A DNA stretch of 64,000 bases from an uncultured Candidatus Saccharibacteria bacterium (GTDB lineage Bacteria > Patescibacteriota > Minisyncoccia > Phycocordibacterales > UBA9973). The notes beneath the pieces were generated by a model, which did no database searches, was not told the origin of the DNA, and saw only the letters and a list, made by a program, of their open reading frames with translations. The stretch spans positions 170,344-234,343 of the forward strand of contig CAZGNC010000001.1 in NCBI GenBank assembly GCA_964527235.1, in the 5' to 3' direction. Position 1 is the stretch's first letter; each line of letters starts with the position of its first letter. A program made the position numbers and the translations under genes. Below are positions 1 to 57,385 of this stretch, one piece after another.

Positions 1-608
1 GTGCTCACATTGAACAAGGCTTAACTGGTGTTGCCAATAAGCTTTCCGTCGAAAAAGAAAAATTAGGACAAGAACGCCACGTGGATTCTTTGACCGGACT
101 TTCTAACGACGTAAAGCCCACACTCGATAGATTAATTAAAGAATTAAGTTTCTCTAAAACAGGGGAAGGCCAACGCCCCTCAAGGCTAGCTGCTGTTATG
201 GTTGTAGCTATGGACTTGAATCGTTTTAAAGAGCTAAACGATACACACGGCCACCAAGCCGGGGATAATGCTCTTGTATTATTTGCTGACAGGGTAAGGT
301 CTTCAACAAGAGAAGGGCATGATATGGTATTTAGGTCCAACAAAAAAGGAGATGAATTTTTAGTAGTTTTACCGATCGAGACAGATCAAGACATCGATCT
401 TCAAAGCTTAGAAGCACTTTTTCAAAAATTAAAACGTGAAATCAATTCTGGGCTTTTCCTTGAGATAGATGACAAGACAACATTTGATTTTTCTGCTGCT
501 ATGGGATATTCAGTTCTTACAAGAAGTGGCCGAGAAAAATCAGTAGAAGACCTACTAGTAAAGGCTGATGAGGAGATGTATAAAGATAAAAGATCATCTA
601 AAAAATAA
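1..608 (+). CDS. GGDEF-domain protein (diguanylate cyclase-like), 5'-partial; signature reads KKGDEF rather than GG(D/E)EF
   Basis: Reading frame is open from the window start; motifs DLNRFKELNDTHGHQAGDNAL and RSNKKGDEFLVVLP match the GGDEF fold; a GTG at 81 is only an internal start. Confidence 0.6.
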   Translation, partial: AHIEQGLTGVANKLSVEKEKLGQERHVDSLTGLSNDVKPTLDRLIKELSFSKTGEGQRPSRLAAVMVVAMDLNRFKELNDTHGHQAGDNALVLFADRVRSSTREGHDMVFRSNKKGDEFLVVLPIETDQDIDLQSLEALFQKLKREINSGLFLEIDDKTTFDFSAAMGYSVLTRSGREKSVEDLLVKADEEMYKDKRSSKK

Positions 609-7617: not shown

Positions 7618-8054
7618 TCTGGGCTTCTGCGTACCTCCCGTCGTCGAAGTAAGACGGCGGGAGGGGAAGGGAATGGTTCTTTTGTAAAAGTTAAATAGTG
7701 TGTTATCGCGGCCTCGGGAATTTATTCTCGGGGTTTTTTGGTGGAAAAATTTTGTACGCTGTTTGTGTGGTCTGGAAACAATCAAAAAGCGCCACTCCGA
7801 GGAGCGGCGCCGTACGACCGTTTGAAGGCTGGTCGTCTTACCTTTGCGCGAGCTTGTCAGCGCCATCGCCCGGTGAGGTATGGGAGACTCATACCCAGCA
7901 ACCGACCATAGGAGTAGTAGTAGTCGTGGGCATATTCCACCTCGCGGTTGCCCCTGACTTGCCAACTACGCAATGTGACAATCATTGTTACTTCCCACAC
8001 CACTATCATTCTTGCCTCCGGGTAGGGGGGGGTGAGTGAGAGTTCGCTACTGGC

Positions 8055-8252: not shown

Positions 8253-8381
8253 TAGCCCTCCAGGTAGATTAGTGGGATTGGGATGCACTACAATCTAGTT
8301 CATATATTGTCACATTTATACATAAAAGTCAAGTTAAACGAAACTGCAGGGGGCGCGAGAAAGCTTGCGGGGATTTGCATG

Positions 8382-8426
8382 CTTCGTACGCTGAGTTTAC
8401 GTGGGCCACAAAAGCCCTACAGAGAA
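8382..8426. repeat. partial third copy of the tRNA-Glu-associated conserved block, fused to a 12-nt tRNA-Glu 3'-end-like fragment
   Basis: cttcgtacgctgagtttacgtgggccacaa matches copies at 8970 and 30749 with 4 mismatches; ccctacagagaa matches the tRNA-Glu 3' region at 30913-30924. Confidence 0.4.
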
Positions 8427-8457: not shown

Positions 8458-8853
8458 CTATAGGGTTACCTCTTTTTTGACTGCTTGCTCAACTTTTTGA
8501 AGAAAACCCTCGGGGATTTCTTCTGCAGTATCAATTTCTGAGAAAACATGTTTGAGGCGTTCTATTTTTTCTCTAACTTCTTGTGCCTTTTGGGCCTCTC
8601 CAGCTTCTTCGTAGTATGTAATGTTAACTTTCAACAGACGCAAAATAGAATCAAGTGATGCCTTTACATCTTTTATAGGCCAAGGTTTATATTCGTCGGG
8701 AATAGCAATGATCATTCCTCTTACTAATACTTTCATGCTTGTTAATACAGCACCATTAGTATCTCTAACGTACTCAGCTAGTTTGTCTGGTGTGTAGTCA
8801 GGAATGTGTTCAGATTTTTGCGGGGTCATCGGAGGTCTTTCGAATTTATCCAT
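8458..8853 (-). CDS. hypothetical protein (131 aa)
   Basis: AT-rich host-like ORF with no recognisable domain; flanked by copies 1 and 3 of the conserved block. Confidence 0.5.
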   Translation of the reverse strand: MDKFERPPMTPQKSEHIPDYTPDKLAEYVRDTNGAVLTSMKVLVRGMIIAIPDEYKPWPIKDVKASLDSILRLLKVNITYYEEAGEAQKAQEVREKIERLKHVFSEIDTAEEIPEGFLQKVEQAVKKEVTL

Positions 8854-8969
8854 AAATTTAGTGTTATTTAATTTATTATTAATAAATAATTTTATAATAT
8901 GTAAAAAATGATGTCAATTTATCTAAACACCAGTAGAAGTCAGAATGTTGCAAGATACAATAAAATTTT

Positions 8970-9047
8970 GAGTGCTTCGCACGCAGAGTTTGTGTGGGCC
9001 ACAATAATTTGCTCGTCGTCACTCGCAAATTTTCCAGCCCCGGACTC
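8970..9047. repeat. conserved 78-nt block, copy 1 (3' side of tRNA-Glu-TTC)
   Basis: gagtgcttcgcacgcagagtttgtgtgggccacaataatttgctcgtcgtcactcgcaaattttccagccccggactc; 77/78 identical to 30749-30826; further similarity at ccgtcttcacaaa. Confidence 0.5.
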
Positions 9048-9096
9048 AGTTGTTTTTCTTGCTAGAAAAACATACTTCCGTCTTCACAAAGCACAG

Positions 9097-9124
9097 AAAA
9101 AGAGCACAGCAGTGTGCTCTTTTT
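9097..9124 (-). terminator. bidirectional intrinsic terminator hairpin after tRNA-Glu
   Basis: aaaaa-gagcaca-gcag-tgtgctc-ttttt: perfect 7-bp stem with A/T runs on both sides. Confidence 0.6.
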
Positions 9125-9211: not shown

Positions 9212-9279
9212 GTATGGCCAAGTGTTTTACTTAGCAGAAATATAATAACATTTTTTATCTAAATTGCAAAAATGCGAAA

Positions 9280-9309
9280 CCCCCACCCGGCGTATTGCGC
9301 GGGCGGGGG
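9280..9309 (-). terminator. hairpin plus T-run terminating the CheY/2-TM operon on the minus strand
   Basis: cccccacccg-gcgtattgcg-cgggcggggg (9 of 10 bp paired), followed on the minus strand by tttcgcattttt. Confidence 0.45.
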
Positions 9310-9329
9310 CTGTGATGATTCCTGCTTGG

Positions 9330-9704
9330 CTAGCAGGGGGGTTGAGGGTTGATGATCGCCTCGATCTTCTCCTTGAGCAGATGTGGTGTGAACGGCTTGA
9401 CGATGTAGTTGTTCACGCCTGCCTGGACCGCCGCGATGATGTCTTCTTTCGCGCTGCTGGTAGTTACCAGCAGTATGGGTACCGACTTGCCGTCGGGACG
9501 AGCACGGAGCTTGCGAATGCACTCGATGCCGGACATGACTGGCATGTTCCAGTCGACGATGACGAAATCAATCGTCTTGTCGAACTTCGTGAGTGCTTCG
9601 AAGCCATTGCTGGCCTCGACGAAATCGACGTAGCCGATCTTCTCGAGCGAGGTGGTGATGATTCGGCGCATTGTGGCGGAATCATCAACGACGAGGAATT
9701 TCAT
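9330..9704 (-). CDS. CheY-like single-domain response regulator receiver protein (GC-rich island 2)
   Basis: 124 aa; canonical receiver residues DD (7-8), phospho-acceptor D in VIVDWNMP, T in LLVTT, K in IVKPF; no output domain. Confidence 0.75.
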   Translation of the reverse strand: MKFLVVDDSATMRRIITTSLEKIGYVDFVEASNGFEALTKFDKTIDFVIVDWNMPVMSGIECIRKLRARPDGKSVPILLVTTSSAKEDIIAAVQAGVNNYIVKPFTPHLLKEKIEAIINPQPPC

Positions 9705-9729
9705 GTTCTTCTCCTGTTGATGAGTGGCC

Positions 9730-9933
9730 TCAGCTCTTCTTCTTGAACAAACCCCATGCGGTCAGTCCAATCGCGATTACCGCCATGACGGTGAACAAGA
9801 TCGCTAGATCGACGGCGGGCTCTTTTTTGGTCTTGATTGCAAGGTGCCAAATCAATGCTGCCGTCGCCACGAGACATCCCGCAATCCATCCCATCAATAG
9901 AACACTGATGTTCTTGTTCGTCAATTTCGGCAT
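9730..9933 (-). CDS. small 2-TM membrane protein (67 aa), co-transcribed upstream of the CheY gene
   Basis: SD AGGAGG 7 nt upstream of ATG (MPKLTNKNISVLLMGWIAGCLVATAALIW...VMAVIAIGLTAWGLF); internal start of the 99-aa track ORF. Confidence 0.45.
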   Translation of the reverse strand: MPKLTNKNISVLLMGWIAGCLVATAALIWHLAIKTKKEPAVDLAILFTVMAVIAIGLTAWGLFKKKS

Positions 9934-10000
9934 GAATACTCCTCCTGGTTGTCGAAGGGGACAGGTCAGGGTGACCAATTCCCAGGTGCTTCCGATGTAA

Positions 10001-10029
10001 AGTATAGCACATTTTGACCCTTTTGTCAA
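10001..10029 (-). promoter_or_regulatory. sigma70-like promoter TTGACA-N17-TATACT (minus strand) with a palindrome over the -35 element
   Basis: Minus-strand TTGACAaaagggtcaaaatgtgcTATACT; inverted repeat TTGAC-aaaaggg-GTCAA overlaps the -35. Confidence 0.4.
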
Positions 10030-10136
10030 AGGGTATTTTATGGAAAAATTATAACCTTATGGTATAAAGAAAGTGAGTATTAGATAGTTCTGTTGGTGTA
10101 GGCAATCACCCCGCACAAGCATGGAGGTATTACGTC

Positions 10137-10322
10137 ATGCATCACGATCTTCCGGCAGGGCAAGAACACAAACGTTGCGAGCGTTGCGCTCGCAGTACTT
10201 TGCACGACGAGAATGTCTGCCAGGAGTGTGGACTTTCTGCCCCTTCAGGGCAAGTGCATGGGGCATCAATTTCCGGTGGCCAGGCGACTGCCTGGTCAAA
10301 TGGATCCGCAACCGACCAATGA
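10137..10322 (+). CDS. small zinc-ribbon-like protein (61 aa; CxxC...CxxC)
   Basis: SD GGAGGT 8 nt upstream of ATG; CERCARSTLHDENVCQECG. Confidence 0.4.
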   Translation: MHHDLPAGQEHKRCERCARSTLHDENVCQECGLSAPSGQVHGASISGGQATAWSNGSATDQ

Positions 10323-10332
10323 GGAAGAGAAG

Positions 10333-10527
10333 ATGGCTGACAGCAAGAATTCCGAAGGCGATGCGGTGAGAGGAGAGATCGAATCTTTGCGTGCAGATCT
10401 AGCGTCGTCTCCCAAGGATCCGATCGTGATTCCATCGCTCGATATCATTGGGCGATCACACCCTTTGCACCCTGATTTTGAGCCGACGGCTGTGTCGCTC
10501 ACCAATGATCGTCGTCTCACCAAGTGA
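10333..10527 (+). CDS. hypothetical acidic small protein (64 aa)
   Basis: SD GAGGAAGAG upstream of an internal ATG of the 104-aa track ORF; MADSKNSEGDAVRGEIESLRADL... Confidence 0.3.
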   Translation: MADSKNSEGDAVRGEIESLRADLASSPKDPIVIPSLDIIGRSHPLHPDFEPTAVSLTNDRRLTK

Positions 10528-10536
10528 GGTGATCGC

Positions 10537-10743
10537 ATGCCCCCACATTCGCACAAGAAAGGCAATAAGCCTCGCCGCGGAAAGAGGGAGCGCAGAGAGG
10601 CGAAACTGCAGGCCAAGCGATATGAAGAAGCAGCTCGGCGTCTTCGTGAACAAGGCCACAGCGGGAATATGAACGACGGCAGTCGGACGTACCAGGGTCC
10701 CACCTGGGGTCATCAAAGCCGGCGAAGGAGTAATTCGAAGTAG
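10537..10743 (+). CDS. highly basic small protein (68 aa, Lys/Arg-rich)
   Basis: SD GAGGTGA 5 nt upstream of ATG; MPPHSHKKGNKPRRGKRERREAKLQAKRYEEAARRLRE... Confidence 0.4.
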   Translation: MPPHSHKKGNKPRRGKRERREAKLQAKRYEEAARRLREQGHSGNMNDGSRTYQGPTWGHQSRRRSNSK

Positions 10744-10756
10744 AGGGAGAATCGAA

Positions 10757-10800
10757 GCGAGGGGCGTCAAACAACCGACGCCACCTCGCTTTTCCTTTTT
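10757..10800 (+). terminator. intrinsic terminator of the island-2 plus-strand operon
   Basis: gcgaggggcgtc-aaacaacc-gacgcc(a)cctcgc followed by ttttcctttttt. Confidence 0.55.
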
Positions 10801-10827
10801 TATGTGGCGTGTTAGTTTTATTAATAC

Positions 10828-10914
10828 GGAGGCGTGGCTGAGTGGTTGAAGGCACCGGTTTCGAAAACCGGCATTGGGGAAACCTAATCGTGAGTTCAAA
10901 TCTCACCGCCTCCG
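10828..10914 (+). tRNA. tRNA-Ser (anticodon CGA)
   Basis: GGAGGCG...CGCCTCC acceptor; anticodon stem-loop CCGGT-TTCGAAA-ACCGG; long variable arm; T-loop TTCAAAT. Confidence 0.85.
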
Positions 10915-30682: not shown

Positions 30683-30748
30683 GACCGAATTGTATCACAA
30701 TCATTAAAAATAGAAGATTTAGAAATTGGGGTCAGGTACTATTTATTT

Positions 30749-30826
30749 GAGTGCTACGCACGCAGAGTTTGTGTGGGCCACAATAATTTGCTCGTCGTCA
30801 CTCGCAAATTTTCCAGCCCCGGACTC
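30749..30826. repeat. conserved 78-nt block, copy 2 (3' side of tRNA-Glu-CTC)
   Basis: 77/78 identical to 8970-9047; same orientation and same position relative to its tRNA-Glu. Confidence 0.5.
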
Positions 30827-30909
30827 GGCTATTCACGTACTCGTGAATTATGCCTCCGTCTTCACAAAACGCTCATAAATAAAGCAGTTTATTTACTTTG
30901 CGCGTTTTG

Positions 30910-30981
30910 TGACCCTACAGAGAATCGAACTCTGATTTGATCCTTGAGAAGGATCCGTCCTAGCCGTTAGACGATAGGGCC
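30910..30981 (-). tRNA. tRNA-Glu (anticodon CTC)
   Basis: Reverse complement GGCCCTATCGTCTAACGGCTAGGACGGATCCTTCTCAAGGATC...TTCGATTC...TAGGGTCA; anticodon loop TTCTCAA. Confidence 0.85.
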
Positions 30982-31087
30982 ATATAAAACATCTAGACCT
31001 ATCGTCCTGAAAACCTGAACGGGCGATAGGCCCAATAAGGAAAAGATAACATTTTTAAAATAAAAATCAAAAGCAGGGAAGGTGTGT

Positions 31088-31116
31088 TTGACTTTTGGGT
31101 AATATACTATATAATA
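31088..31116 (+). promoter_or_regulatory. sigma70-like promoter TTGACT-N16-TATAAT driving the island-5 plus-strand operon
   Basis: ttgacttttgggtaatatactatataat ~80 nt upstream of the first island ORF. Confidence 0.45.
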
Positions 31117-31197
31117 TTATACAGTATATGTAGGTACATTGTAAGACCAGTCGGCCACAAACGGTTGATTGGAACCTGAACACAGGAGTCGCACCGC

Positions 31198-31386
31198 ATG
31201 ATGAGGGTTGTTATGAAGCCGAGAAAGACAACTCAAGAAACAATCACGTTTCTTCGAGAGGGGGTAGAAATCACTTTATCCTCTCCGGTTGTTGCCATCG
31301 TTCCCGACGAGGAACGGCTGGAGTTTCTTTCTGACTCGCGCGTCGTTATCAGTCCCCGCGTCGATATTGCGACGCTTGTGAGTTGA
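31198..31386 (+). CDS. hypothetical small protein (62 aa) in GC-rich island 5
   Basis: SD AGGAG 9 nt upstream of ATG; MMRVVMKPRKTTQETITFLREGVEITLSSPVVAIVPDEERLEFL... Confidence 0.4.
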   Translation: MMRVVMKPRKTTQETITFLREGVEITLSSPVVAIVPDEERLEFLSDSRVVISPRVDIATLVS

Positions 31387-31396
31387 ATCGCCACCT

Positions 31397-31420
31397 GGCC
31401 CCCGCGACGTCGCGGGGGCC
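31397..31420. repeat. perfect 24-nt palindrome GGCCCCCGCGACGTCGCGGGGGCC in the intercistronic gap (operator or RNA hairpin candidate)
   Basis: Self-complementary over all 24 nt; no T-run follows; sits 23 nt upstream of the next SD. Confidence 0.5.
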
Positions 31421-31443
31421 TCACTGCTTAAGGAGGATATCAC

Positions 31444-31689
31444 ATGCAGACCAGGATTGAAGTAACTATCCTCAGTGACGGGCGGGTGCAGGTGGATGAG
31501 AACGGGCAGAAGTCCGTGATCACTCCACAGTCGAATGGGTTCATGTTCGCGATGAATATCAACGGGGACTACTCCCTGACCATCAGCGATCCGAAGCCGG
31601 AGCCGGCGATCCTTCCACGTGTGCCCTTGTCGAGTCTCAGTTGCTTCGACGGGGGGTTGCTTTTTCCGGAGGGAGGTGGCAACCCATGA
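31444..31689 (+). CDS. hypothetical protein (81 aa) in GC-rich island 5
   Basis: SD AAGGAGGA 7 nt upstream of ATG; MQTRIEVTILSDGRVQVDENGQKSVITPQSNGFMFAMNINGDYSL...; stop overlaps the next start (ATGA). Confidence 0.45.
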   Translation: MQTRIEVTILSDGRVQVDENGQKSVITPQSNGFMFAMNINGDYSLTISDPKPEPAILPRVPLSSLSCFDGGLLFPEGGGNP

Positions 31690-31775
31690 TCCTGCTCTTG
31701 ATGTGGGTCATCGTGGCAATCTTCGGCGGGTGGCTCGTCATGCACTCTGCCGAGTGCAAGTGGGCCGACGAGTAG
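31686..31775 (+). CDS. 29-aa hydrophobic membrane peptide (MILLLMWVIVAIFGGWLVMHSAECKWADE), translationally coupled to the upstream gene
   Basis: ATGA start/stop overlap with the upstream ORF; single TM helix; below the 60-aa threshold of the ORF track. Confidence 0.35.
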   Translation: MILLLMWVIVAIFGGWLVMHSAECKWADE

Positions 31776-31791
31776 GTGTCGGCATGCAGTA

Positions 31792-31829
31792 GGGGTCTCG
31801 CGTTCGCGCGAGGCCCCGTTTTTGTTTTT
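31792..31829 (+). terminator. intrinsic terminator of the island-5 plus-strand operon
   Basis: ggggtctcgcg-ttcg-cgcgaggcccc followed by gtttttgttttt. Confidence 0.6.
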
Positions 31830-31884
31830 ATTTATTTTATATTAAAATTAATTTGGAACAATCAACCACCAACGGAGGTGCCAC

Positions 31885-32013
31885 ATGTTGGAGACGATAG
31901 TTGGTGTCCTGTTCGTGGCATCCTTGTGTGCCATTGTCCTGTATTTTCTGAGACGTGGTTGGCAGTTACTGAAAGAGATTGGGGATGCTCTTGAGCATCC
32001 GTTCAATGAATGA
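31885..32013 (+). CDS. 42-aa membrane peptide (MLETIVGVLFVASLCAIVLYFLRRGWQLLKEIGDALEHPFNE)
   Basis: SD GGAGGT 7 nt upstream of ATG; one TM helix; a weak hairpin plus T-rich stretch follows near 32036-32075. Confidence 0.35.
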   Translation: MLETIVGVLFVASLCAIVLYFLRRGWQLLKEIGDALEHPFNE

Positions 32014-32191
32014 CATCTTGAGGAATCGGCCCTGGCGCAAGCTAGGGCTTTCTCGTATAAAAATAAAACGCCTCACAGCTCAGAGAGCGCGAGGTGTTCT
32101 TGTGACGTAGTAAGACGTCGGCTTGATCTTGCCCGCCGAGCAATGGCTACGACGGGGTTGCGCGAGGTGCAAATAGCTTGCGAGATGTGAA

Positions 32192-32500
32192 CTATCCCAA
32201 GGCTTTCTTTACGAGAGCGCTCAAGATGATCACACCTGCGGCGACAATGAAGATCAGAGTCAGTGTTGCCGTTTCCGAAGCCTTGGGCTTGGTTTGGTTC
32301 ACAGGCTCCGGCTCTTTGTCTTCGCCGTTCCACCAGTCGTTTCCGAACACTGGTGCCTCCTTCTTGTCAGGGGTCTTCGTTACACGGTGTTCACCTGTAC
32401 TCCGCAGATGTTCTTCGAAGCCTTTCGGTCTGAGGTTCGTAACTTCAAGACCGAACGGTATTCTTCTTCTTTTTACCTTTCCCTTCTTCCTTTTTTTCAT
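32192..32500 (-). CDS. 102-aa protein with a Lys/Arg-rich N-terminus and a C-terminal TM anchor (tail-anchored)
   Basis: SD GGGAGGGA upstream of an internal ATG of the 118-aa track ORF; MKKRKKGKVKRRRIPFGLEV...ATLTLIFIVAAGVIILSALVKKALG. Confidence 0.4.
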   Translation of the reverse strand: MKKRKKGKVKRRRIPFGLEVTNLRPKGFEEHLRSTGEHRVTKTPDKKEAPVFGNDWWNGEDKEPEPVNQTKPKASETATLTLIFIVAAGVIILSALVKKALG

Positions 32501-32580
32501 CTGTATCCCTCCCGGCAGGGATGCGATTGACTTGCCCCGTCGGTACACGATTCGCCGGCGGGGTTGCTATGTCGGTGTGT

Positions 32581-32712
32581 TCATACTGAGCAACTTTGCA
32601 TCCACACCACGATGCAAACCACGACCAGAAGTCCGATCACGTACCCTGTGCTCACCGGCATGTTGTTGTACATCCATGAGAATGCTTTCTGGGCTTTCTG
32701 GATCTGAGTCAC
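32581..32712 (-). CDS. 43-aa TM peptide, GTG start (VTQIQKAQKAFSWMYNNMPVSTGYVIGLLVVVCIVVWMQSCSV)
   Basis: SD AGGAG 9 nt upstream of GTG; GC3-rich frame; preferred over the overlapping 113-aa Arg/Ser-rich track ORF. Confidence 0.3.
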   Translation of the reverse strand: MTQIQKAQKAFSWMYNNMPVSTGYVIGLLVVVCIVVWMQSCSV

Positions 32713-32742
32713 AATTCCTACTCCTGGTGTCTAGTGAAGGAG

Positions 32743-32811
32743 TCAGGACAGCAGACTGAAAAGTAGCCCTACTCCTAGGCCGACGGCCACCACGGTTCCG
32801 AGAATCTTCAT
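32743..32811 (-). CDS. 22-aa hydrophobic peptide (MKILGTVVAVGLGVGLLFSLLS); may extend to a 41-aa form starting at 32868
   Basis: Hydrophobic ORF between two TM-peptide genes on the minus strand; no clear SD; tentative. Confidence 0.2.
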   Translation of the reverse strand: MKILGTVVAVGLGVGLLFSLLS

Positions 32812-32904
32812 CAACGGTGTCTTGGTATTGACGCGGGTCTGCTGGAGTCTGTCTTGTGGCAACCTCATTCGGCGCCGGGGGGGCGCCCTCTTGGAGTGGT
32901 TCGG

Positions 32905-33069
32905 TCATGACTTCCTCTCCTTTGTTGAAGTGGTCCCAAAGAAGGCGCTAGGTGCCTCTCCGGGGTGGAGCACTTGCCACGAACCGTAGATCGTGGCGAA
33001 GCACAGCGTGATGAGCGCAATCGCGGTGAGAGCGCTCCTGAACAGGAACCCGCCAATCTGTTCTTTCAT
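32905..33069 (-). CDS. 54-aa TM protein (MKEQIGGFLFRSALTAIALITLCFATIYGSWQVLHPGEAPSAFFGTTSTKERKS)
   Basis: Strong GC3 bias; TTGACA-N16-TAATCA promoter-like sequence upstream; weak SD; ATGA overlap with the next downstream frame. Confidence 0.35.
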   Translation of the reverse strand: MKEQIGGFLFRSALTAIALITLCFATIYGSWQVLHPGEAPSAFFGTTSTKERKS

Positions 33070-33137
33070 TGGAAGGTGCTCGCTTTTTTGGATTCAATAA
33101 AATGATTACGTTTTCAACGCCTTTTGTCAATAGCTGG

Positions 33138-34214
33138 CTAATCTTCGAGTTTGGTCTTCTCAGTCTCGAGAAGTGAGAATTCTGGGGAGCTACCAGATAT
33201 ACGCAAGACGTCTTTGTCTATTTTCTTTAATTCTTTGTTCGAAGAGTTGTAGTGGTTGCTGACTGTATTTATCGCGTTGCCGAGTTTGGTGTGATATTCG
33301 CTGTAGGCATTGAGGTGTTTGCCCAGGTCTTCGACTTTTTTGATTATTTCTTTTGCAGATTCTTCTATTTTGAAAGCTTTAAATCCATAGAGTACTGACT
33401 GCAGATACGCCATGAAGGTCGTAGGGGAGATGATTATGACTTTCTTCTCGTTGTAGGCGTAGTCTATGAGGTTCCTAGTGTTTACTTTTATCGAGCCGAC
33501 TTCGTTGACTAGTAGATCGTAATATATCGCCTCTGCTGGGATATACATAAATGCGAATGGCAAAGTGTTCTCATCAGGGCGAACGTATTTCGCAGTTTCG
33601 TCGATGCGTTTCTTGAGATCGTTTTTAAATTCTTTTTCTAATTCTTCTCTCTGTCTGTCGTCCATAGCGTGCACAACTCGGTCGTAGTTGTCGAGAGAGA
33701 ATTTCGCATCTATCGGGATGATGCCTTCTTTAGTGATGATGACAGCGTCGACGACTTCTTTGTTTTTAAATTCATACTGCATCTTGTACTGGCCGGGCGC
33801 AAGAGTGTTCGAAAGTATGAGCTCAAGCGATGCTTCACCCCAGTTGCCTCGTTGTTTCTGGTGCTTGAGAGTCTTCTCGAGACTGCCGAGCTTCTCGGCA
33901 ATGTTTACGAATTCACGAGTGGCTTCGTTCGCCTTGGTTTGCTCGCGGGTGACGTCGATGAGGCTCTTGTTCATCTGCTCATTTATATCTTTAATTAATT
34001 TCTGCGAATCAGAGAACTGCGCACGCACAGCGTCCTGCATGTCACGGCGAGACTCTGTGAGTTTAGAGTCGAGCGCTCGAGCGAGCTCAGACATTTGTTG
34101 CTGAAGTAGGGAGAAGGATTGGTCCCCAGTAGAACTTTTCCCTTTATTTAGAAAAAGGTAAACAATAACACCACCTACCGCTACTCCTAAAATTATATAA
34201 ATTATGTTTTCCAT
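33138..34214 (-). CDS. rmuC: DNA recombination protein RmuC
   Basis: 358 aa; N-terminal TM then coiled-coil; RmuC C-terminal nuclease-like region (YIPAEAIYYDLLV...). Confidence 0.75.
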   Translation of the reverse strand: MENIIYIILGVAVGGVIVYLFLNKGKSSTGDQSFSLLQQQMSELARALDSKLTESRRDMQDAVRAQFSDSQKLIKDINEQMNKSLIDVTREQTKANEATREFVNIAEKLGSLEKTLKHQKQRGNWGEASLELILSNTLAPGQYKMQYEFKNKEVVDAVIITKEGIIPIDAKFSLDNYDRVVHAMDDRQREELEKEFKNDLKKRIDETAKYVRPDENTLPFAFMYIPAEAIYYDLLVNEVGSIKVNTRNLIDYAYNEKKVIIISPTTFMAYLQSVLYGFKAFKIEESAKEIIKKVEDLGKHLNAYSEYHTKLGNAINTVSNHYNSSNKELKKIDKDVLRISGSSPEFSLLETEKTKLED

Positions 34215-34266
34215 TTAGTAGATATTTTAGCATTTTTTTATAAGAAAAACTTTTATAAAACGAAAG

Positions 34267-34303
34267 AGCCACACGATGGTCGGTGTGACTCAATCGTGTG
34301 GCT
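34267..34303 (-). terminator. 11-bp-stem hairpin terminator downstream of the island-9 gene (minus strand)
   Basis: agccacacgat-ggtcggtgtgactca-atcgtgtggct with a T-rich run following on the minus strand (cttt cgttttat). Confidence 0.5.
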
Positions 34304-34324
34304 TTGTTTCTTTGTGAAGATGCC

Positions 34325-34639
34325 CTAGTTGTCGTCGGGCGTCTGGAGGGGGGCGTCGTGTTCGACGTCCTCCTTCTGCTTGGCGAGGGCGATTACTTCC
34401 GCCCACTTTTCGCCGAATTCACCATCTGCTTCGAGGCCCTCGACGGGAACCTCGAACTTGATGGCTGTCTTGATGTACACGTTGACCTGCGATGGGTCAA
34501 CCTCGGCGAGCTCGACCGTCTTGTCGAATTGTTCTCCGGCGACTCCATCCAGCTCGATGTCTTCCCACTCGATGTCGTCGTACGACGCTCCAAGTACGAG
34601 AACGGCGTTGACGAACTCCTTCCTTCTTGCCCAGTTCAT
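34325..34639 (-). CDS. acidic hypothetical protein (104 aa) in GC-rich island 9
   Basis: TTGACA-N17-TAATTT promoter inside the 3' end of the upstream exonuclease gene; MNWARRKEFVNAVLVLGASYDDIEWEDIELDGVAGEQ...; no family recognised. Confidence 0.4.
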   Translation of the reverse strand: MNWARRKEFVNAVLVLGASYDDIEWEDIELDGVAGEQFDKTVELAEVDPSQVNVYIKTAIKFEVPVEGLEADGEFGEKWAEVIALAKQKEDVEHDAPLQTPDDN

Positions 34640-34705
34640 GCGGGTTCCTGTGTTGAGGGTGAGGTACTTCAAAAACAAATTAACATACCATTGTGAGTCT
34701 GTCAA

Positions 34706-35422
34706 TTACCTATTTAAAAAATGTTTAAGCGTATAAATCCAGTCTTCGTCGATGCCGTCGCCGTTGAGTTTCTGCTCTAGGAGCCAGTCCAAGTAGCCAC
34801 GATCGGTCTTTACGACTTCCTCTATTCTTTTTCCGTTGTATTTACCAAATTTAAATGTGTGAAGTATCGAAGGGTGTGAAGATATCTCCATCATACGCTC
34901 GAGTGCGTCGCTTTCTTCTATGTTTTCTTTCTCCATGATTTTCTTCTTCAAGCGTTCGAAGAGCTTCTCGAGTACCAGCACGTCGCCGAGAGCGTCGTGG
35001 GCTTGAGCCTCGACTTCTATCTCGAGTAAGTAACGAAGGTATTGCAGGTTGTATTTTGCTATTTTCTCTTCAGGGTCGAGATGTCTGACGACGCGAAGTG
35101 TGCAGATGAAGTTCTTGGGCTCGATGCCTTCTTTTTTAAACATTACTAAATCAAATGGTGCGTTGTGGGCGACGACTATAGAGTTGGTATCTTCGAAAAG
35201 TTCTTTGATTTTTTCCTTGTCGCCACTTTCGGCAAATGATGGTTTATCCGCGATCATCTTGTTTGAGATGTGGTGCACAGCTGATGCTTCGGGTGGGATT
35301 TTAATCGGGGGTTTGTATAGTGCTTCGAAAGTTTCTTCGCCCGTCTTGTAAGCTATCTGACATAGGAAATCTTTTTCCGTGTTTCCGGTGGTTTCTGTAT
35401 CAAAAAAGATTATTTTTGGCAT
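34706..35422 (-). CDS. DnaQ-like 3'-5' exonuclease (DEDDh family)
   Basis: 238 aa; Exo I FFDTETTG, Exo II VVAHNAPFD, Exo III HDALGDV. Confidence 0.7.
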   Translation of the reverse strand: MPKIIFFDTETTGNTEKDFLCQIAYKTGEETFEALYKPPIKIPPEASAVHHISNKMIADKPSFAESGDKEKIKELFEDTNSIVVAHNAPFDLVMFKKEGIEPKNFICTLRVVRHLDPEEKIAKYNLQYLRYLLEIEVEAQAHDALGDVLVLEKLFERLKKKIMEKENIEESDALERMMEISSHPSILHTFKFGKYNGKRIEEVVKTDRGYLDWLLEQKLNGDGIDEDWIYTLKHFLNR

Positions 35423-56975: not shown

Positions 56976-57005
56976 TTGACTTTTAAGTATTTAGTATGGT
57001 ATACT
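56976..57005 (+). promoter_or_regulatory. sigma70-like promoter TTGACT-N18-TATACT upstream of the island-7 gene
   Basis: ttgacttttaagtatttagtatggtatact in the AT-rich gap after atpC. Confidence 0.35.
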
Positions 57006-57052
57006 GAAAAAGAAGTAGAACCACCTTCACCACCACAACTTGCGAGGTGATT

Positions 57053-57298
57053 ATGCCAGATGAGAATGAGGTCAACCACAACCCACCACTCCGACTGGAG
57101 AGCGGCACGGACGACTCGGTGGGATTTTCCGAGCTGATGGAGCTCTCGTACGGCTTAGATGAAAGAGAGTTCGTCACGTTGCTTGAGGTAACGGGAATTG
57201 TTCCTCCTCTGCCGGCCGGCATTTCCGAAGACGACGTGCTCGCGCTGGGCAGGCGCGCCGGTGAAGCAGCGCTGAAGAGAGTGAACAGACAGCGTTAA
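57053..57298 (+). CDS. acidic hypothetical protein (81 aa) in GC-rich island 7
   Basis: SD GAGGTG 3 nt upstream of ATG (MPDENEVNHNPPLRLESGTDDSVGFSELMEL...); a GTG at 57047 is an alternative start. Confidence 0.4.
   Translation: MPDENEVNHNPPLRLESGTDDSVGFSELMELSYGLDEREFVTLLEVTGIVPPLPAGISEDDVLALGRRAGEAALKRVNRQR
57086..57106 (+). repeat. 21-bp direct repeat, copy 1 (within codons ~12-18 of the island-7 ORF)
   Basis: ccactccgactggagagcggc; 20/21 identical to 57302-57322, which lies 4 nt after the ORF stop. Confidence 0.5.
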
Positions 57299-57301
57299 CT
57301 G

Positions 57302-57322
57302 CCACTCCGACTAGAGAGCGGC
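57302..57322 (+). repeat. 21-bp direct repeat, copy 2 (immediately after the island-7 ORF stop)
   Basis: ccactccgactagagagcggc; the two copies bracket almost exactly the ORF body. Confidence 0.5.
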
Positions 57323-57346
57323 TGTGGGGTGCTGTTAGTCACATAA

Positions 57347-57385
57347 AAGCCCGCATGACGATGTCTAGCGGGCTTCTGCTTTTCT
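57347..57385 (+). terminator. intrinsic terminator of the island-7 gene
   Basis: aagcccgc-atgacgatgtcta-gcgggctt followed by ctgcttttct. Confidence 0.6.

Follow-up and report, generated by a model that had tools for sequence, protein, structure and literature searches.

Genes and features of the locus

The stretch analyzed here, 64,000 nucleotides (nt) of contig CAZGNC010000001.1 and hereafter called the window, belonged to a Patescibacteria (candidate phyla radiation, CPR) genome of the Paceibacteria/Nomurabacteria type, with orthologues of its rmuC gene (61 to 92% identical, in 80 Patescibacteria genomes) found only in metagenome-assembled genomes (MAGs) of that group. Between rmuC and a tRNA-Glu(CTC) gene, the window harbors an islet of about 2 kb that is horizontally acquired and GC-rich (0.53 for the stretch 31151-33200, against 0.42 for the window), inserted between rmuC and the native promoter of the tRNA gene. 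The islet carries eight very small genes or candidate genes, in two convergent transcription units separated by a small cassette. Other assemblies of the same strain (four available) were 100% identical.

An original prediction, made from the letters of the window, had described two convergent operons of small membrane peptides at this place, with a perfect 24-nt palindrome and translational coupling. The features that it listed (promoters, open reading frames (ORFs), palindrome, coupling, terminator and tRNA) were all present where it had put them. Its outline of the locus, i.e., two convergent units of very small genes, an ATGA coupling, a palindrome that looks functional and a hot spot beside a tRNA gene, was backed by a second strain and by 16 relatives, both described below.

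Products are named after their length in amino acids (aa). Hydropathy is the Kyte-Doolittle mean of a 19-residue stretch, a calculation on which all assignments of transmembrane (TM) segments were based. Codon scores are given per codon and come from a model trained on 240 long ORFs of Patescibacteria loci with a GC of 0.49 to 0.60. From left to right, the features were as follows.

30909-30981, minus strand: tRNA-Glu(CTC) gene (ARAGORN; Rfam, 57.7 bits), a host gene forming the left flank, outside the islet
30996-31056, minus strand: native host-derived spacer, with a tRNA promoter remnant and copies of the tRNA 5' end
31088-31115, plus strand: promoter of the plus unit, TTGACT-N16-TATAAT, 11 of 12 consensus positions, at the left islet edge
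31147-31172, plus strand: leader hairpin of 10 bp, CCAGTCGGCC-ACAAAC-GGTTGATTGG, the minimum-free-energy fold in both strains
31198-31386, plus strand: p62 gene, 62 aa, soluble, predicted all-beta product; codon score +0.12
31397-31420, plus strand: perfect 24-nt palindrome, GGCCCCCGCGACGTCGCGGGGGCC, between p62 and the Shine-Dalgarno sequence (SD) of p81
31444-31689, plus strand: p81 gene, 81 aa, soluble product, strong SD (AAGGAGG); codon score +0.21
31686-31775, plus strand: p29 gene, 29 aa, single-pass membrane micro-protein; hydropathy 2.58, codon score +0.41
31792-31829, plus strand: intrinsic terminator of the plus unit, an 11-bp stem (31792-31817) and a T-run; -25 kcal/mol, z = -4.0
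31830-32056, plus strand: separate cassette of 227 nt, with an AT-rich leader, an SD, a 42-aa membrane peptide and its own terminator hairpin (32029-32053)
31885-32013, plus strand: p42 gene within that cassette, 42 aa, membrane peptide, SD GGAGG; hydropathy 2.61, codon score +0.13
32056-32191, minus strand: terminator of the minus unit (stem 32094-32071, U-tract 32069-32056) and structured 3' untranslated region (UTR) of p102; -47.4 kcal/mol, z = -3.5
32192-32500, minus strand: p102 gene, 102 aa, tail-anchored product; hydropathy 2.71, codon score +0.18
32581-32712, minus strand: p43 candidate, 43 aa, C-terminal TM segment, GTG start, SD AGGAG; hydropathy 2.45, codon score +0.20
32743-32908, minus strand: p41 candidate, tail-anchored product, uncertain start; hydropathy 2.40, codon score +0.17
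32905-33069, minus strand: p54 candidate, 54 aa, N-terminal TM segment, first of its unit, no clear SD; hydropathy 1.93, codon score +0.15
33130-33102, minus strand: promoter of the minus unit, TTGACA-N17-AATCAT, 8 nt past the stop codon of rmuC, at the right islet edge
33138-34214, minus strand: rmuC (Pfam RmuC, E = 9e-51), a host gene forming the right flank of the slot, outside the islet

The islet lies in a variable slot

The order from rmuC to tRNA-Glu(CTC), both on one strand, was kept in 16 relatives, with a gap of 29 to 2168 nt between the two genes. All of them displayed the motif AAAATG(C/T)TATATT 7 to 10 nt ahead of the tRNA, and the short gaps consisted of an AT-rich spacer ending in this motif. 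The window differed in that its copy of the motif, an extended -10-like remnant of the tRNA promoter (AAAAATGTTATCTT, 31043-31056) in the native spacer, stood about 60 nt away from the tRNA. The space between the displaced motif and the tRNA held a copy of the tRNA 5' end (GGGCCTATCGCCCG, 31020-31033) and an inverted copy (30996-31007), which jointly form a hairpin and look like the scar of an earlier rearrangement. Since the native spacer and motif were still present on the left (at about 31043-31075) and similarity to the closest relative (L004) ended on the right at the stop codon of rmuC (33137), the inserted DNA spans about 31080-33137.

Both the length of the gap and its cargo differed across the 16 relatives, which marks the slot as a variable hot spot. 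The cargo of the longer gaps was unrelated to the islet of the window and comprised the following.

L009 and L012: XRE-type helix-turn-helix (HTH) proteins
L036: 8xMP membrane protein (PF24838)
L014: NUDIX protein
L005: protein with a GreA/B C-terminal-like domain
L013, L020 and L036: GC-rich segments encoding ORFan secreted proteins

The GC-rich cargo extended over 9036-10951 in L013, 8979-10309 in L020 and 8931-11098 in L036, with a GC of 0.50 to 0.54 compared to 0.40 to 0.45 for the locus. Visual inspection of the ORF lists suggested one protein common to L013 and L020, of about 233 aa and with a signal peptide, and another, a membrane protein of about 95 aa, common to L013 and L036. None of the 80 related loci, the window's own contigs apart, encoded a product similar to the islet ORFs.

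No family match to a tyrosine or serine recombinase was obtained for any ORF in 31080-33137, nor among the neighbouring genes scanned. The tRNA-like fragments were confined to the 60 nt at the tRNA 5' end (30996-31033), and the distal (rmuC) end held no direct repeat of the tRNA. An integrase-mediated, tRNA-targeting genomic island was rejected, as neither the recombinase gene nor the distal tRNA repeat was present. An integron cassette array was rejected too: there was no IntI and no attC array, the units had promoters of their own, and the palindrome, found once in the window, lay between two genes of a single operon. The islet resembled tRNA-linked strain-specific islets in its foreign composition, its ORFan genes and a cargo that varies by relative, but differed from them in lacking an integrase and a tRNA 3'-end repeat, in lying 5' of the tRNA and upstream of the tRNA promoter, and in measuring only 2 kb.

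A second strain carries the module

The module was also present in one other strain, represented by two overlapping contigs (L089, of 986 nt, and L101) with 100% identity across 617 nt. When p62 was used as the query of a full HMMER search, it yielded P0008, a protein of 59 aa encoded on L089 and 54% identical over its whole length; matches of p62 to repeat proteins of 1,100 to 3,500 aa (P0006, P0007 and P0009) were rejected as summed weak tandem-repeat matches. L089/L101 displayed, in this order, the promoter, the 59-aa homologue, the palindrome, a 79-aa homologue of p81 (60 to 62% identical), the coupled 29-aa peptide (same length as p29, 22 of 29 residues identical) and the terminator, then the facing terminator, the 3' UTR and a 96-aa homologue of p102. 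The latter, on L101, was 41 to 44% identical, and its basic N-terminus, core, C-terminal anchor and stop position were kept. No homologue had been recognised for any of the eight genes in the original prediction; this held for p42, p54, p41 and p43 but not for p62, p81, p29 and p102.

Ratios of non-synonymous to synonymous substitution rates (dN/dS) were 0.25 for p62, 0.44 for p81, 0.07 for p29 and 0.33 for p102, with dS saturated (above 1) for p62, p29 and p102. These values (0.07 to 0.44) identify the four as real genes under purifying selection. Differences were concentrated at third codon positions in the p62 (32 of 61) and p29 genes. The length of a 193-aa antisense ORF overlapping the module was not kept in the second strain.

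Identity between the two strains, from the upstream side of the plus unit to the 3' UTR of the minus unit, was distributed as follows.

Upstream of the -35 box: 0.33 (unrelated)
Promoter: 0.91
Leader hairpin block, 31148-31186: 0.85
p62 coding, first 165 nt (31201-31364): 0.60
Palindrome block, 31365-31432: 0.84
p81 coding: 0.74
p29 coding: 0.77
Terminator of the plus unit: 0.88
3' UTR of the minus unit, compared stretch 32057-32141: 0.89

The promoter, leader hairpin, palindrome block, terminators and 3' UTR (0.84 to 0.91) were thus more conserved than the coding DNA (0.60 to 0.77). Homology with the second strain started at the -35 box, which places the left edge of the islet at the promoter, and indels of 1 and 18 nt in the aligned 3' UTR of p102 indicate that this stretch is non-coding.

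The surroundings of the module were not the same in the two strains. In L089 it sat directly behind a terminator and a tRNA-Glu-type trailer element of about 120 nt, 3' of that element, whereas in the window it sat 5' of tRNA-Glu(CTC). Because the element of about 120 nt follows both tRNA-Glu genes of the window and precedes the module in L089, the two strains hold the module in different tRNA-Glu-linked slots, which hints at cassette exchange.

Together, the borders, the variable slot and the second strain make up a structural and evolutionary account of the islet that we regard as highly probable.

The plus-strand unit and the 42-aa cassette

Counts of promoter-like sites (4, compared to 2.4 in shuffled sequences) and of terminator-like sites (5, compared to 3.5) showed no excess over chance; the specific promoter and terminator sites of the islet were nevertheless conserved in the second strain. 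The leader hairpin stood out from its surroundings, with an identity of 0.85 for its block compared to 0.14 to 0.50 for the neighbouring sequence, and one of its G-U pairs was a G-C pair in L089. The second ATG of p62, at 31201, lined up with the start of the relative's gene.

Folded as RNA, as the original prediction had proposed, the palindrome formed, in both strains, a G+C stem of 10 bp closed by an ACGU loop; it has no U-tract, and the start codon of p81 follows 23 nt further on. Its half-site was unique in the window, and its count was reached by none of 100 shuffles. A single outer base differed in L089, and the surrounding block (0.84) exceeded the flanking coding DNA (0.60 to 0.74). 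We read the palindrome as an RNA stem-loop at which the upstream transcript would end or by which it would be protected, though it may instead act at the DNA level as a protein-binding or recombination site. The exact 20-nt core of the palindrome also occurred in 11 JGI contigs, an occurrence judged to be due to chance given the unrelated contexts, the lack of flanking or protein similarity and the high GC of most of these contigs.

Intercistronic stem-loops that set differential mRNA stability are known from the repetitive extragenic palindromic (REP) elements in malEFG and from the hairpins of the puf operon. The palindrome of the islet is similarly a stable G+C hairpin without a U-tract between two cistrons, and more conserved than the coding sequence. 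Unlike REP elements, it is a single copy and not a member of a dispersed repeat family, and an effect on RNA would be assigned to it by analogy.

Downstream, the TGA stop codon of p81 overlapped the ATG of p29 (ATGA coupling), and the same overlap was displayed by L089. Hydropathy gave neither p62 nor p81 a strongly hydrophobic 19-residue stretch, and neither had a signal peptide-like N-terminus; both are predicted, as read from their anatomy, to be small soluble beta-rich proteins.

The plus-strand operon had originally been drawn from the promoter to the 42-aa peptide. The part running from the promoter through p29 and the terminator was retained, while p42 was set apart. The 227-nt segment containing its gene appeared as a clean gap of 227 columns in the alignment with the second strain, and its absence there identifies p42 as a separate indel cassette outside the plus operon. 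Gene-calling pipelines annotated p42 on two contigs.

The minus-strand unit

The p102 product combined a Lys/Arg-rich N-terminus, a core (RPxGFxEHLRxTGEHRVxxTPDKxExP) and a C-terminal TM segment, and the SD of its gene lay inside a small conserved hairpin (32505-32522). Upstream of p102, the frames of the unit were harder to assign. Three starts were available for p41: ATG 32868 (41 aa, 32743-32868, no SD), ATG 32811 (22 aa, 32743-32811) and ATG 32908, which has a good SD and overlaps the stop codon of p54. Starting from 32908, p41 needs a -1 shift at a run of seven C residues (C7; G7 on the plus strand, 32877-32883) and would yield a tail-anchored peptide of 54 aa. For p43, the proposed frame was the best one over its stretch in a sliding six-frame scan.

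In automatic annotation (NCBI, Logan), an ORF of 113 aa (32567-32908) took the place of p41 and p43, and the choice between these frames was made on codon usage. The eight ORFs of the original prediction scored from +0.12 to +0.41, in the range of real coding chunks and among the top 0.1 to 9% of shadow ORFs. Overlapping alternatives all scored +0.03 or less, including the 113-aa ORF (-0.11) and the 193-aa ORF (-0.18), and GC by codon position agreed with the codon model on the choice of frame.

That the 113-aa ORF is the real gene, with p41 and p43 as chance ORFs in another frame, is rather unlikely. In its favour, a good SD (AGGAGAGGA) precedes it, its start overlaps the p54 stop codon as ATGA, gene callers annotated it and no ORF on that strand is longer. 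Its codon score, however, corresponded to the 5th percentile of real coding chunks (compared to +0.17 for p41 and +0.20 for p43), its GC by codon position (0.64/0.54/0.44) was the reverse of that of the validated islet genes, and its product was of low complexity with no hydrophobic segment. In the sliding six-frame scan, the 113-aa frame was favoured for its first 10 to 20 codons only and the p41 frame after that, with the switch near the C7 homopolymer, as would be expected if translation began at 32908 and changed frame at C7. Removing one C would join the SD-bearing start to the p41 frame. Phase variation, a frameshift mutation and coincidence are all possible explanations for the run. Automatic annotation thus probably mis-calls the middle of the minus unit. 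The original prediction had named conservation of the 113- or 193-aa frame as an outcome that would speak against it, and neither was found conserved: the 193-aa length was not kept and both frames scored as non-coding, while the second-strain contig ends before the 113-aa frame.

Homopolymers of seven or more G or C occurred at only two places in the 64-kb window, 32877-32883 and 8025-8032, both within GC-rich small-gene cassettes.

The ORFs of p54, p41 and p43 lie in one reading frame, separated by a TGA and then by a TGA and a TAG. Recoding of TGA as a sense codon across the three was rejected, as a TAG also intervenes, host genes stop at TGA and the GC-rich DNA is unlike known TGA-recoding lineages. 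The shared frame, with two of the three peptides devoid of an SD and the comparison between strains limited to the p102 end of the unit, would also fit a minus-strand half made of decaying foreign DNA, in which p54, p41 and p43 are fragments of one gene broken by nonsense mutations. Such decay is improbable. A hydrophobic segment is present in every one of the three fragments, p43 has an SD of its own, and the p54-p41 stretch, if read through its two TGA codons, matches no family, as neither piece has a match. Downstream, p102 with its SD hairpin, its terminator and its 3' UTR was conserved in the second strain, which argues that the minus unit is maintained.

Membrane character of the products

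A 19-residue stretch with a mean hydropathy of 1.9 to 2.7 was displayed by six of the eight islet products, so that the description of the genes as encoding small membrane peptides stood for these six and not for p62 and p81. A charged C-terminal tail was restricted to p42 and p54; in p102, p43 and p41, the TM segment was at the extreme C-terminus and the charged part was N-terminal.

Membrane proteins of fewer than 50 aa that modulate larger membrane complexes are known, such as AcrZ, MgrB, KdpF and CydX. The single-pass peptides of the islet (29 to 54 aa) resemble them in size, in the coupling of some to a neighbouring gene and in being easily missed by annotation, but show no sequence relation to them, have no large membrane complex adjacent and lie in acquired rather than core DNA.

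Small hydrophobic peptides clustered in a variable, acquired locus would also be expected of a bacteriocin and immunity locus, with one or more secreted peptides and small membrane immunity proteins. This reading is very improbable, as no double-glycine leader or Sec leader of normal length was found (a lone 'GG' near an N-terminus, at residue 7 of p54, comes too early in the peptide) and the N-termini of p62 and p81 were not signal peptide-like. Neither the islet nor its flanks encoded an ABC transporter with a C39 peptidase or a modification enzyme, and no family match pointed to such a system.

Homology searches and the comparison with known systems

Ten candidate products of the islet were without a match in Pfam, NCBIfam and PADLOC. 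In PHROGs, nothing was obtained at E <= 0.1 for the islet products, except two marginal matches of p43 (0.07 to 0.09). Sequence profiles of the PDB gave no match for p62, p81 and p102, and Rfam gave none for the islet, either at the gathering threshold or at E <= 1. The islet DNA matched neither a plasmid collection nor 50,697 phage records, tblastn of p81 and p102 against phages was negative, and so were a scan of JGI metagenomes with a p81 profile and scans of IMG/VR in which proteins, profiles of two sequences and conserved blocks of DNA served as queries. For p81, p102 and the 113-aa ORF, a protein search by word index retrieved nothing but the query itself; the same search missed the 79-aa p81 homologue (about 60% identical, with several exact 5-mers in common) in the same collection, so that such negatives are weak for very short proteins. 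By exact look-up, the 29-, 41-, 43- and 54-aa sequences were not found in a collection of 15 billion proteins, while the 29-aa ORF was gene-called on one Logan contig. No paralogy was detected among the islet ORFs or between them and other GC-rich segments of the window, and no usable description of such cassettes in Patescibacteria was found in the literature.

Several features recall phages. The units are moron-like in build, with their own promoters and terminators, a foreign GC and a tRNA-linked hot spot, phage-type XRE/CI-like HTH genes occupied the same slot in relatives, and the products are small bitopic membrane proteins (six of eight by hydropathy). A prophage remnant, or a phage-derived cassette for lysis or superinfection exclusion (holin, antiholin, spanin-like or Sie-like), is nonetheless decidedly improbable. 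No endolysin, integrase, capsid or other phage gene lay in or beside the islet, flanked as it is by rmuC and a tRNA, and without an endolysin a holin/lysis cassette fails. There was no PHROGs match beyond the marginal ones of p43 and none in phage records or IMG/VR, and the polarity of p102 (basic N-terminus, TM segment at the C-terminal end) is opposite to that of holins. The holin and bacteriocin analogies of the original prediction were thus dropped, with no endolysin, no leader or transporter and no family match in Pfam, NCBIfam, PHROGs or PADLOC; its functional analogies, which it had itself offered as inference, gained no support.

A toxin-antitoxin or addiction module is unlikely as well, whether type I-like (p42, p43, p41 or p29 as the toxin, with an antisense RNA) or operon-type (p81 as the neutraliser and p29 as the toxin). 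The products of 29, 42, 43, 41 and 54 aa would suit it in size (below 60 aa) and hydropathy (1.9 to 2.6), p29 was the most constrained product (dN/dS of 0.07), and the order p81-p29 with its ATGA overlap is like that of operons with the antitoxin ahead of the toxin. Antisense RNA could come from the convergent units and from the 3' UTR, which is structured and conserved, and the 42-aa gene forms a monocistronic cassette present or absent between strains. Against this, a consensus scan found no promoter opposite any of the peptide genes, convergent read-through being possible, and most peptides lie within multi-gene operons, unlike type I toxins. No toxin-antitoxin or defence model was matched, nor was there a sequence relation to GhoS/GhoT, p81 and p29 being without a Pfam or NCBIfam match even at E of 0.1 to 1. 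The islet resembles type V ghoS-ghoT and type I systems in that a small hydrophobic peptide is coupled downstream of a small soluble protein in a compact mobile locus, and differs from them in the lack of homology and of a detected antisense promoter. GhoT has two TM segments, compared to one in p29.

Proposed nature and mode of action

Phage 'morons', known from lambdoid phage genomics, are autonomous units of promoter, gene and terminator, often of deviant GC, set between conserved genes. The features of this class were found in the islet: its own promoters (with an activity predicted from sequence) and terminators, conserved in the second strain, conserved neighbours and a deviant GC. Like morons, its units have an own promoter and an intrinsic terminator, homology that starts at the -35 box, and one optional cassette (42 aa). 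Unlike morons, the islet lies in a Patescibacteria chromosome with no phage genes nearby and holds two operons of several genes each, where a moron has one gene. The islet is probably best explained as a whole, in our estimate, as a moron-like, horizontally acquired module of small membrane proteins; it is an ORFan accessory islet of a known general type and not a new kind of system.

In such a module, the units would behave as self-contained pieces running from promoter to terminator, as phage morons do, with no recombinase of their own. The first, on the plus strand, would be transcribed from the near-consensus sigma-70 promoter through the hairpin leader, p62, the G+C hairpin, p81 and the coupled p29 to the terminator. 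The second, convergent on the minus strand, would run from its promoter through three single-pass peptides (54, about 41 to 54, and 43 aa) and p102 to the facing terminator, and the third is the optional 42-aa membrane-peptide cassette between the two terminators. The products may assemble in or at the cytoplasmic membrane. Coupled translation would bring p81 and p29 together as a pair, and p102, its polybasic head presumably in the cytoplasm, would join the minus-strand peptides in a set of bitopic subunits. Through termination or protection of the p62 transcript, an intercistronic RNA stem-loop at the palindrome would determine how much p62 is made relative to p81 and p29. The role of the module could be an accessory envelope function: it might, for instance, exclude phages and other invaders or confer immunity to them, or might pair an addiction-type membrane toxin with a neutraliser. 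A membrane-defence or addiction role of this kind is the one that we favour, though tentatively and with low confidence. Housekeeping subunits are unlikely among the products.

Several observations weigh against the interpretation of the islet as an acquired, moron-like membrane-protein module. None of the family collections searched gave it a function, and no direct repeats flanked it, which adds to the absence of a mobility gene. Hydropathy similar to that of the six membrane candidates was displayed by 15% of random small ORFs of the window, and two AlphaFold models of islet proteins, with predicted local distance difference test (pLDDT) values of 50 and 54, were unusable. The comparison involved a single strain, known from two contigs, with the saturation of dS noted above, and the high identity around the palindrome could stem from recent recombination instead of function. 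For p54, p41 and p43, the support came from codon statistics only, the L089/L101 contig ending ahead of them; p54 and p41 had no clear SD, and the competing 113-aa ORF combined a good SD with an ATGA overlap at the p54 stop.

Patescibacteria have tiny genomes with a large share of uncharacterised genes, and the locus is a clean example of lineage-specific gain of small genes. The genes of the islet arrive as complete transcription units, of foreign GC, in a slot between conserved genes, and at least four of them, a 29-aa membrane peptide included, are under purifying selection. Micro-proteins that are mis-annotated or missed, as here, matter for the counts of small proteins in Patescibacteria.

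Other cassettes and the tRNA-Glu trailer element

Four further GC-rich mini-cassettes, strain-specific and built like the islet units, were found in the window (8332-7790, 7225-6950 and 58430-58095 on the minus strand, 56976-57380 on the plus strand). Each was built from an AT-rich TTGACTTTT or a TTGACA promoter, a GC-rich leader, an SD, an ORF of 50 to 95 aa and a GC-rich terminator, and each of the four TTGACTTTT sites of the window opened such a cassette. The cassette at 8332-7790 encoded a two-helix membrane peptide of 62 aa and a second small ORF.

The structured trailer element of about 120 nt followed both tRNA-Glu genes of the window (30746-30865 and 8967-9100, both on the minus strand), with 88 nt that were 95% identical. 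Its 38-nt 3' part, which includes TTGTGGCCCACACAAACT, was repeated at 8374-8411 (minus strand), the direct repeats flanking an AT-rich gene of 131 aa (8458-8853). Each copy lay just upstream of a promoter; on L089, positions 1-160 (plus strand) consisted of the terminator and the element ahead of the islet promoter. One hairpin of the element displayed compensatory changes (TTCACG/CGTGAA compared to TTCTTG/CAAGAA), and the element had no Rfam match. The element could be an undescribed RNA, a regulatory region or a recombination site.

The occurrence of the module in different tRNA-Glu-linked positions, the 38-nt repeats flanking another gene, the four additional cassettes and the location of both G/C runs inside cassettes together suggest a broader possibility, namely that GC-rich micro-gene cassettes, each complete from promoter to terminator, are swapped among a few tRNA-Glu-linked slots of Paceibacteria without a recombinase in cis, and that they encode swappable tail-anchored micro-membrane proteins with C7 as a phase-variable switch. 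Exchange might then rely on the uptake of DNA together with recombination at conserved structured sites, for instance the trailer element or the G+C hairpins, and ultra-small episymbionts might use the swappable micro-proteins in their dealings with hosts or phages. Such a shared pool of cassettes is a speculative and improbable extension of the data; if true, it would represent a mode of accessory-gene turnover in this group.

Independent short-read contigs of the window strain from Logan (L001, L002 and L003) broke close to the right islet edge, at 33085 and 32919, and within the repeated trailer element, at 30757. These breaks fit repeats or strain heterogeneity at the points concerned.

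On the other side of rmuC, a further lineage-specific GC-rich insert (34218-34712) encoding an ORFan of 104 aa (34325-34639, minus strand) separated rmuC from an exonuclease gene. The two genes were 8 nt apart in L017, and the insert was also unmatched in the alignments with L008 and L010. Another GC-rich segment (9264-10900), beside tRNA-Glu(TTC) and tRNA-Ser, encoded a stand-alone response-regulator receiver of 124 aa (9330-9704, minus strand; Pfam E = 6e-27) along with further small ORFs, including one of 99 aa that was apparently hydrophobic (unscored).

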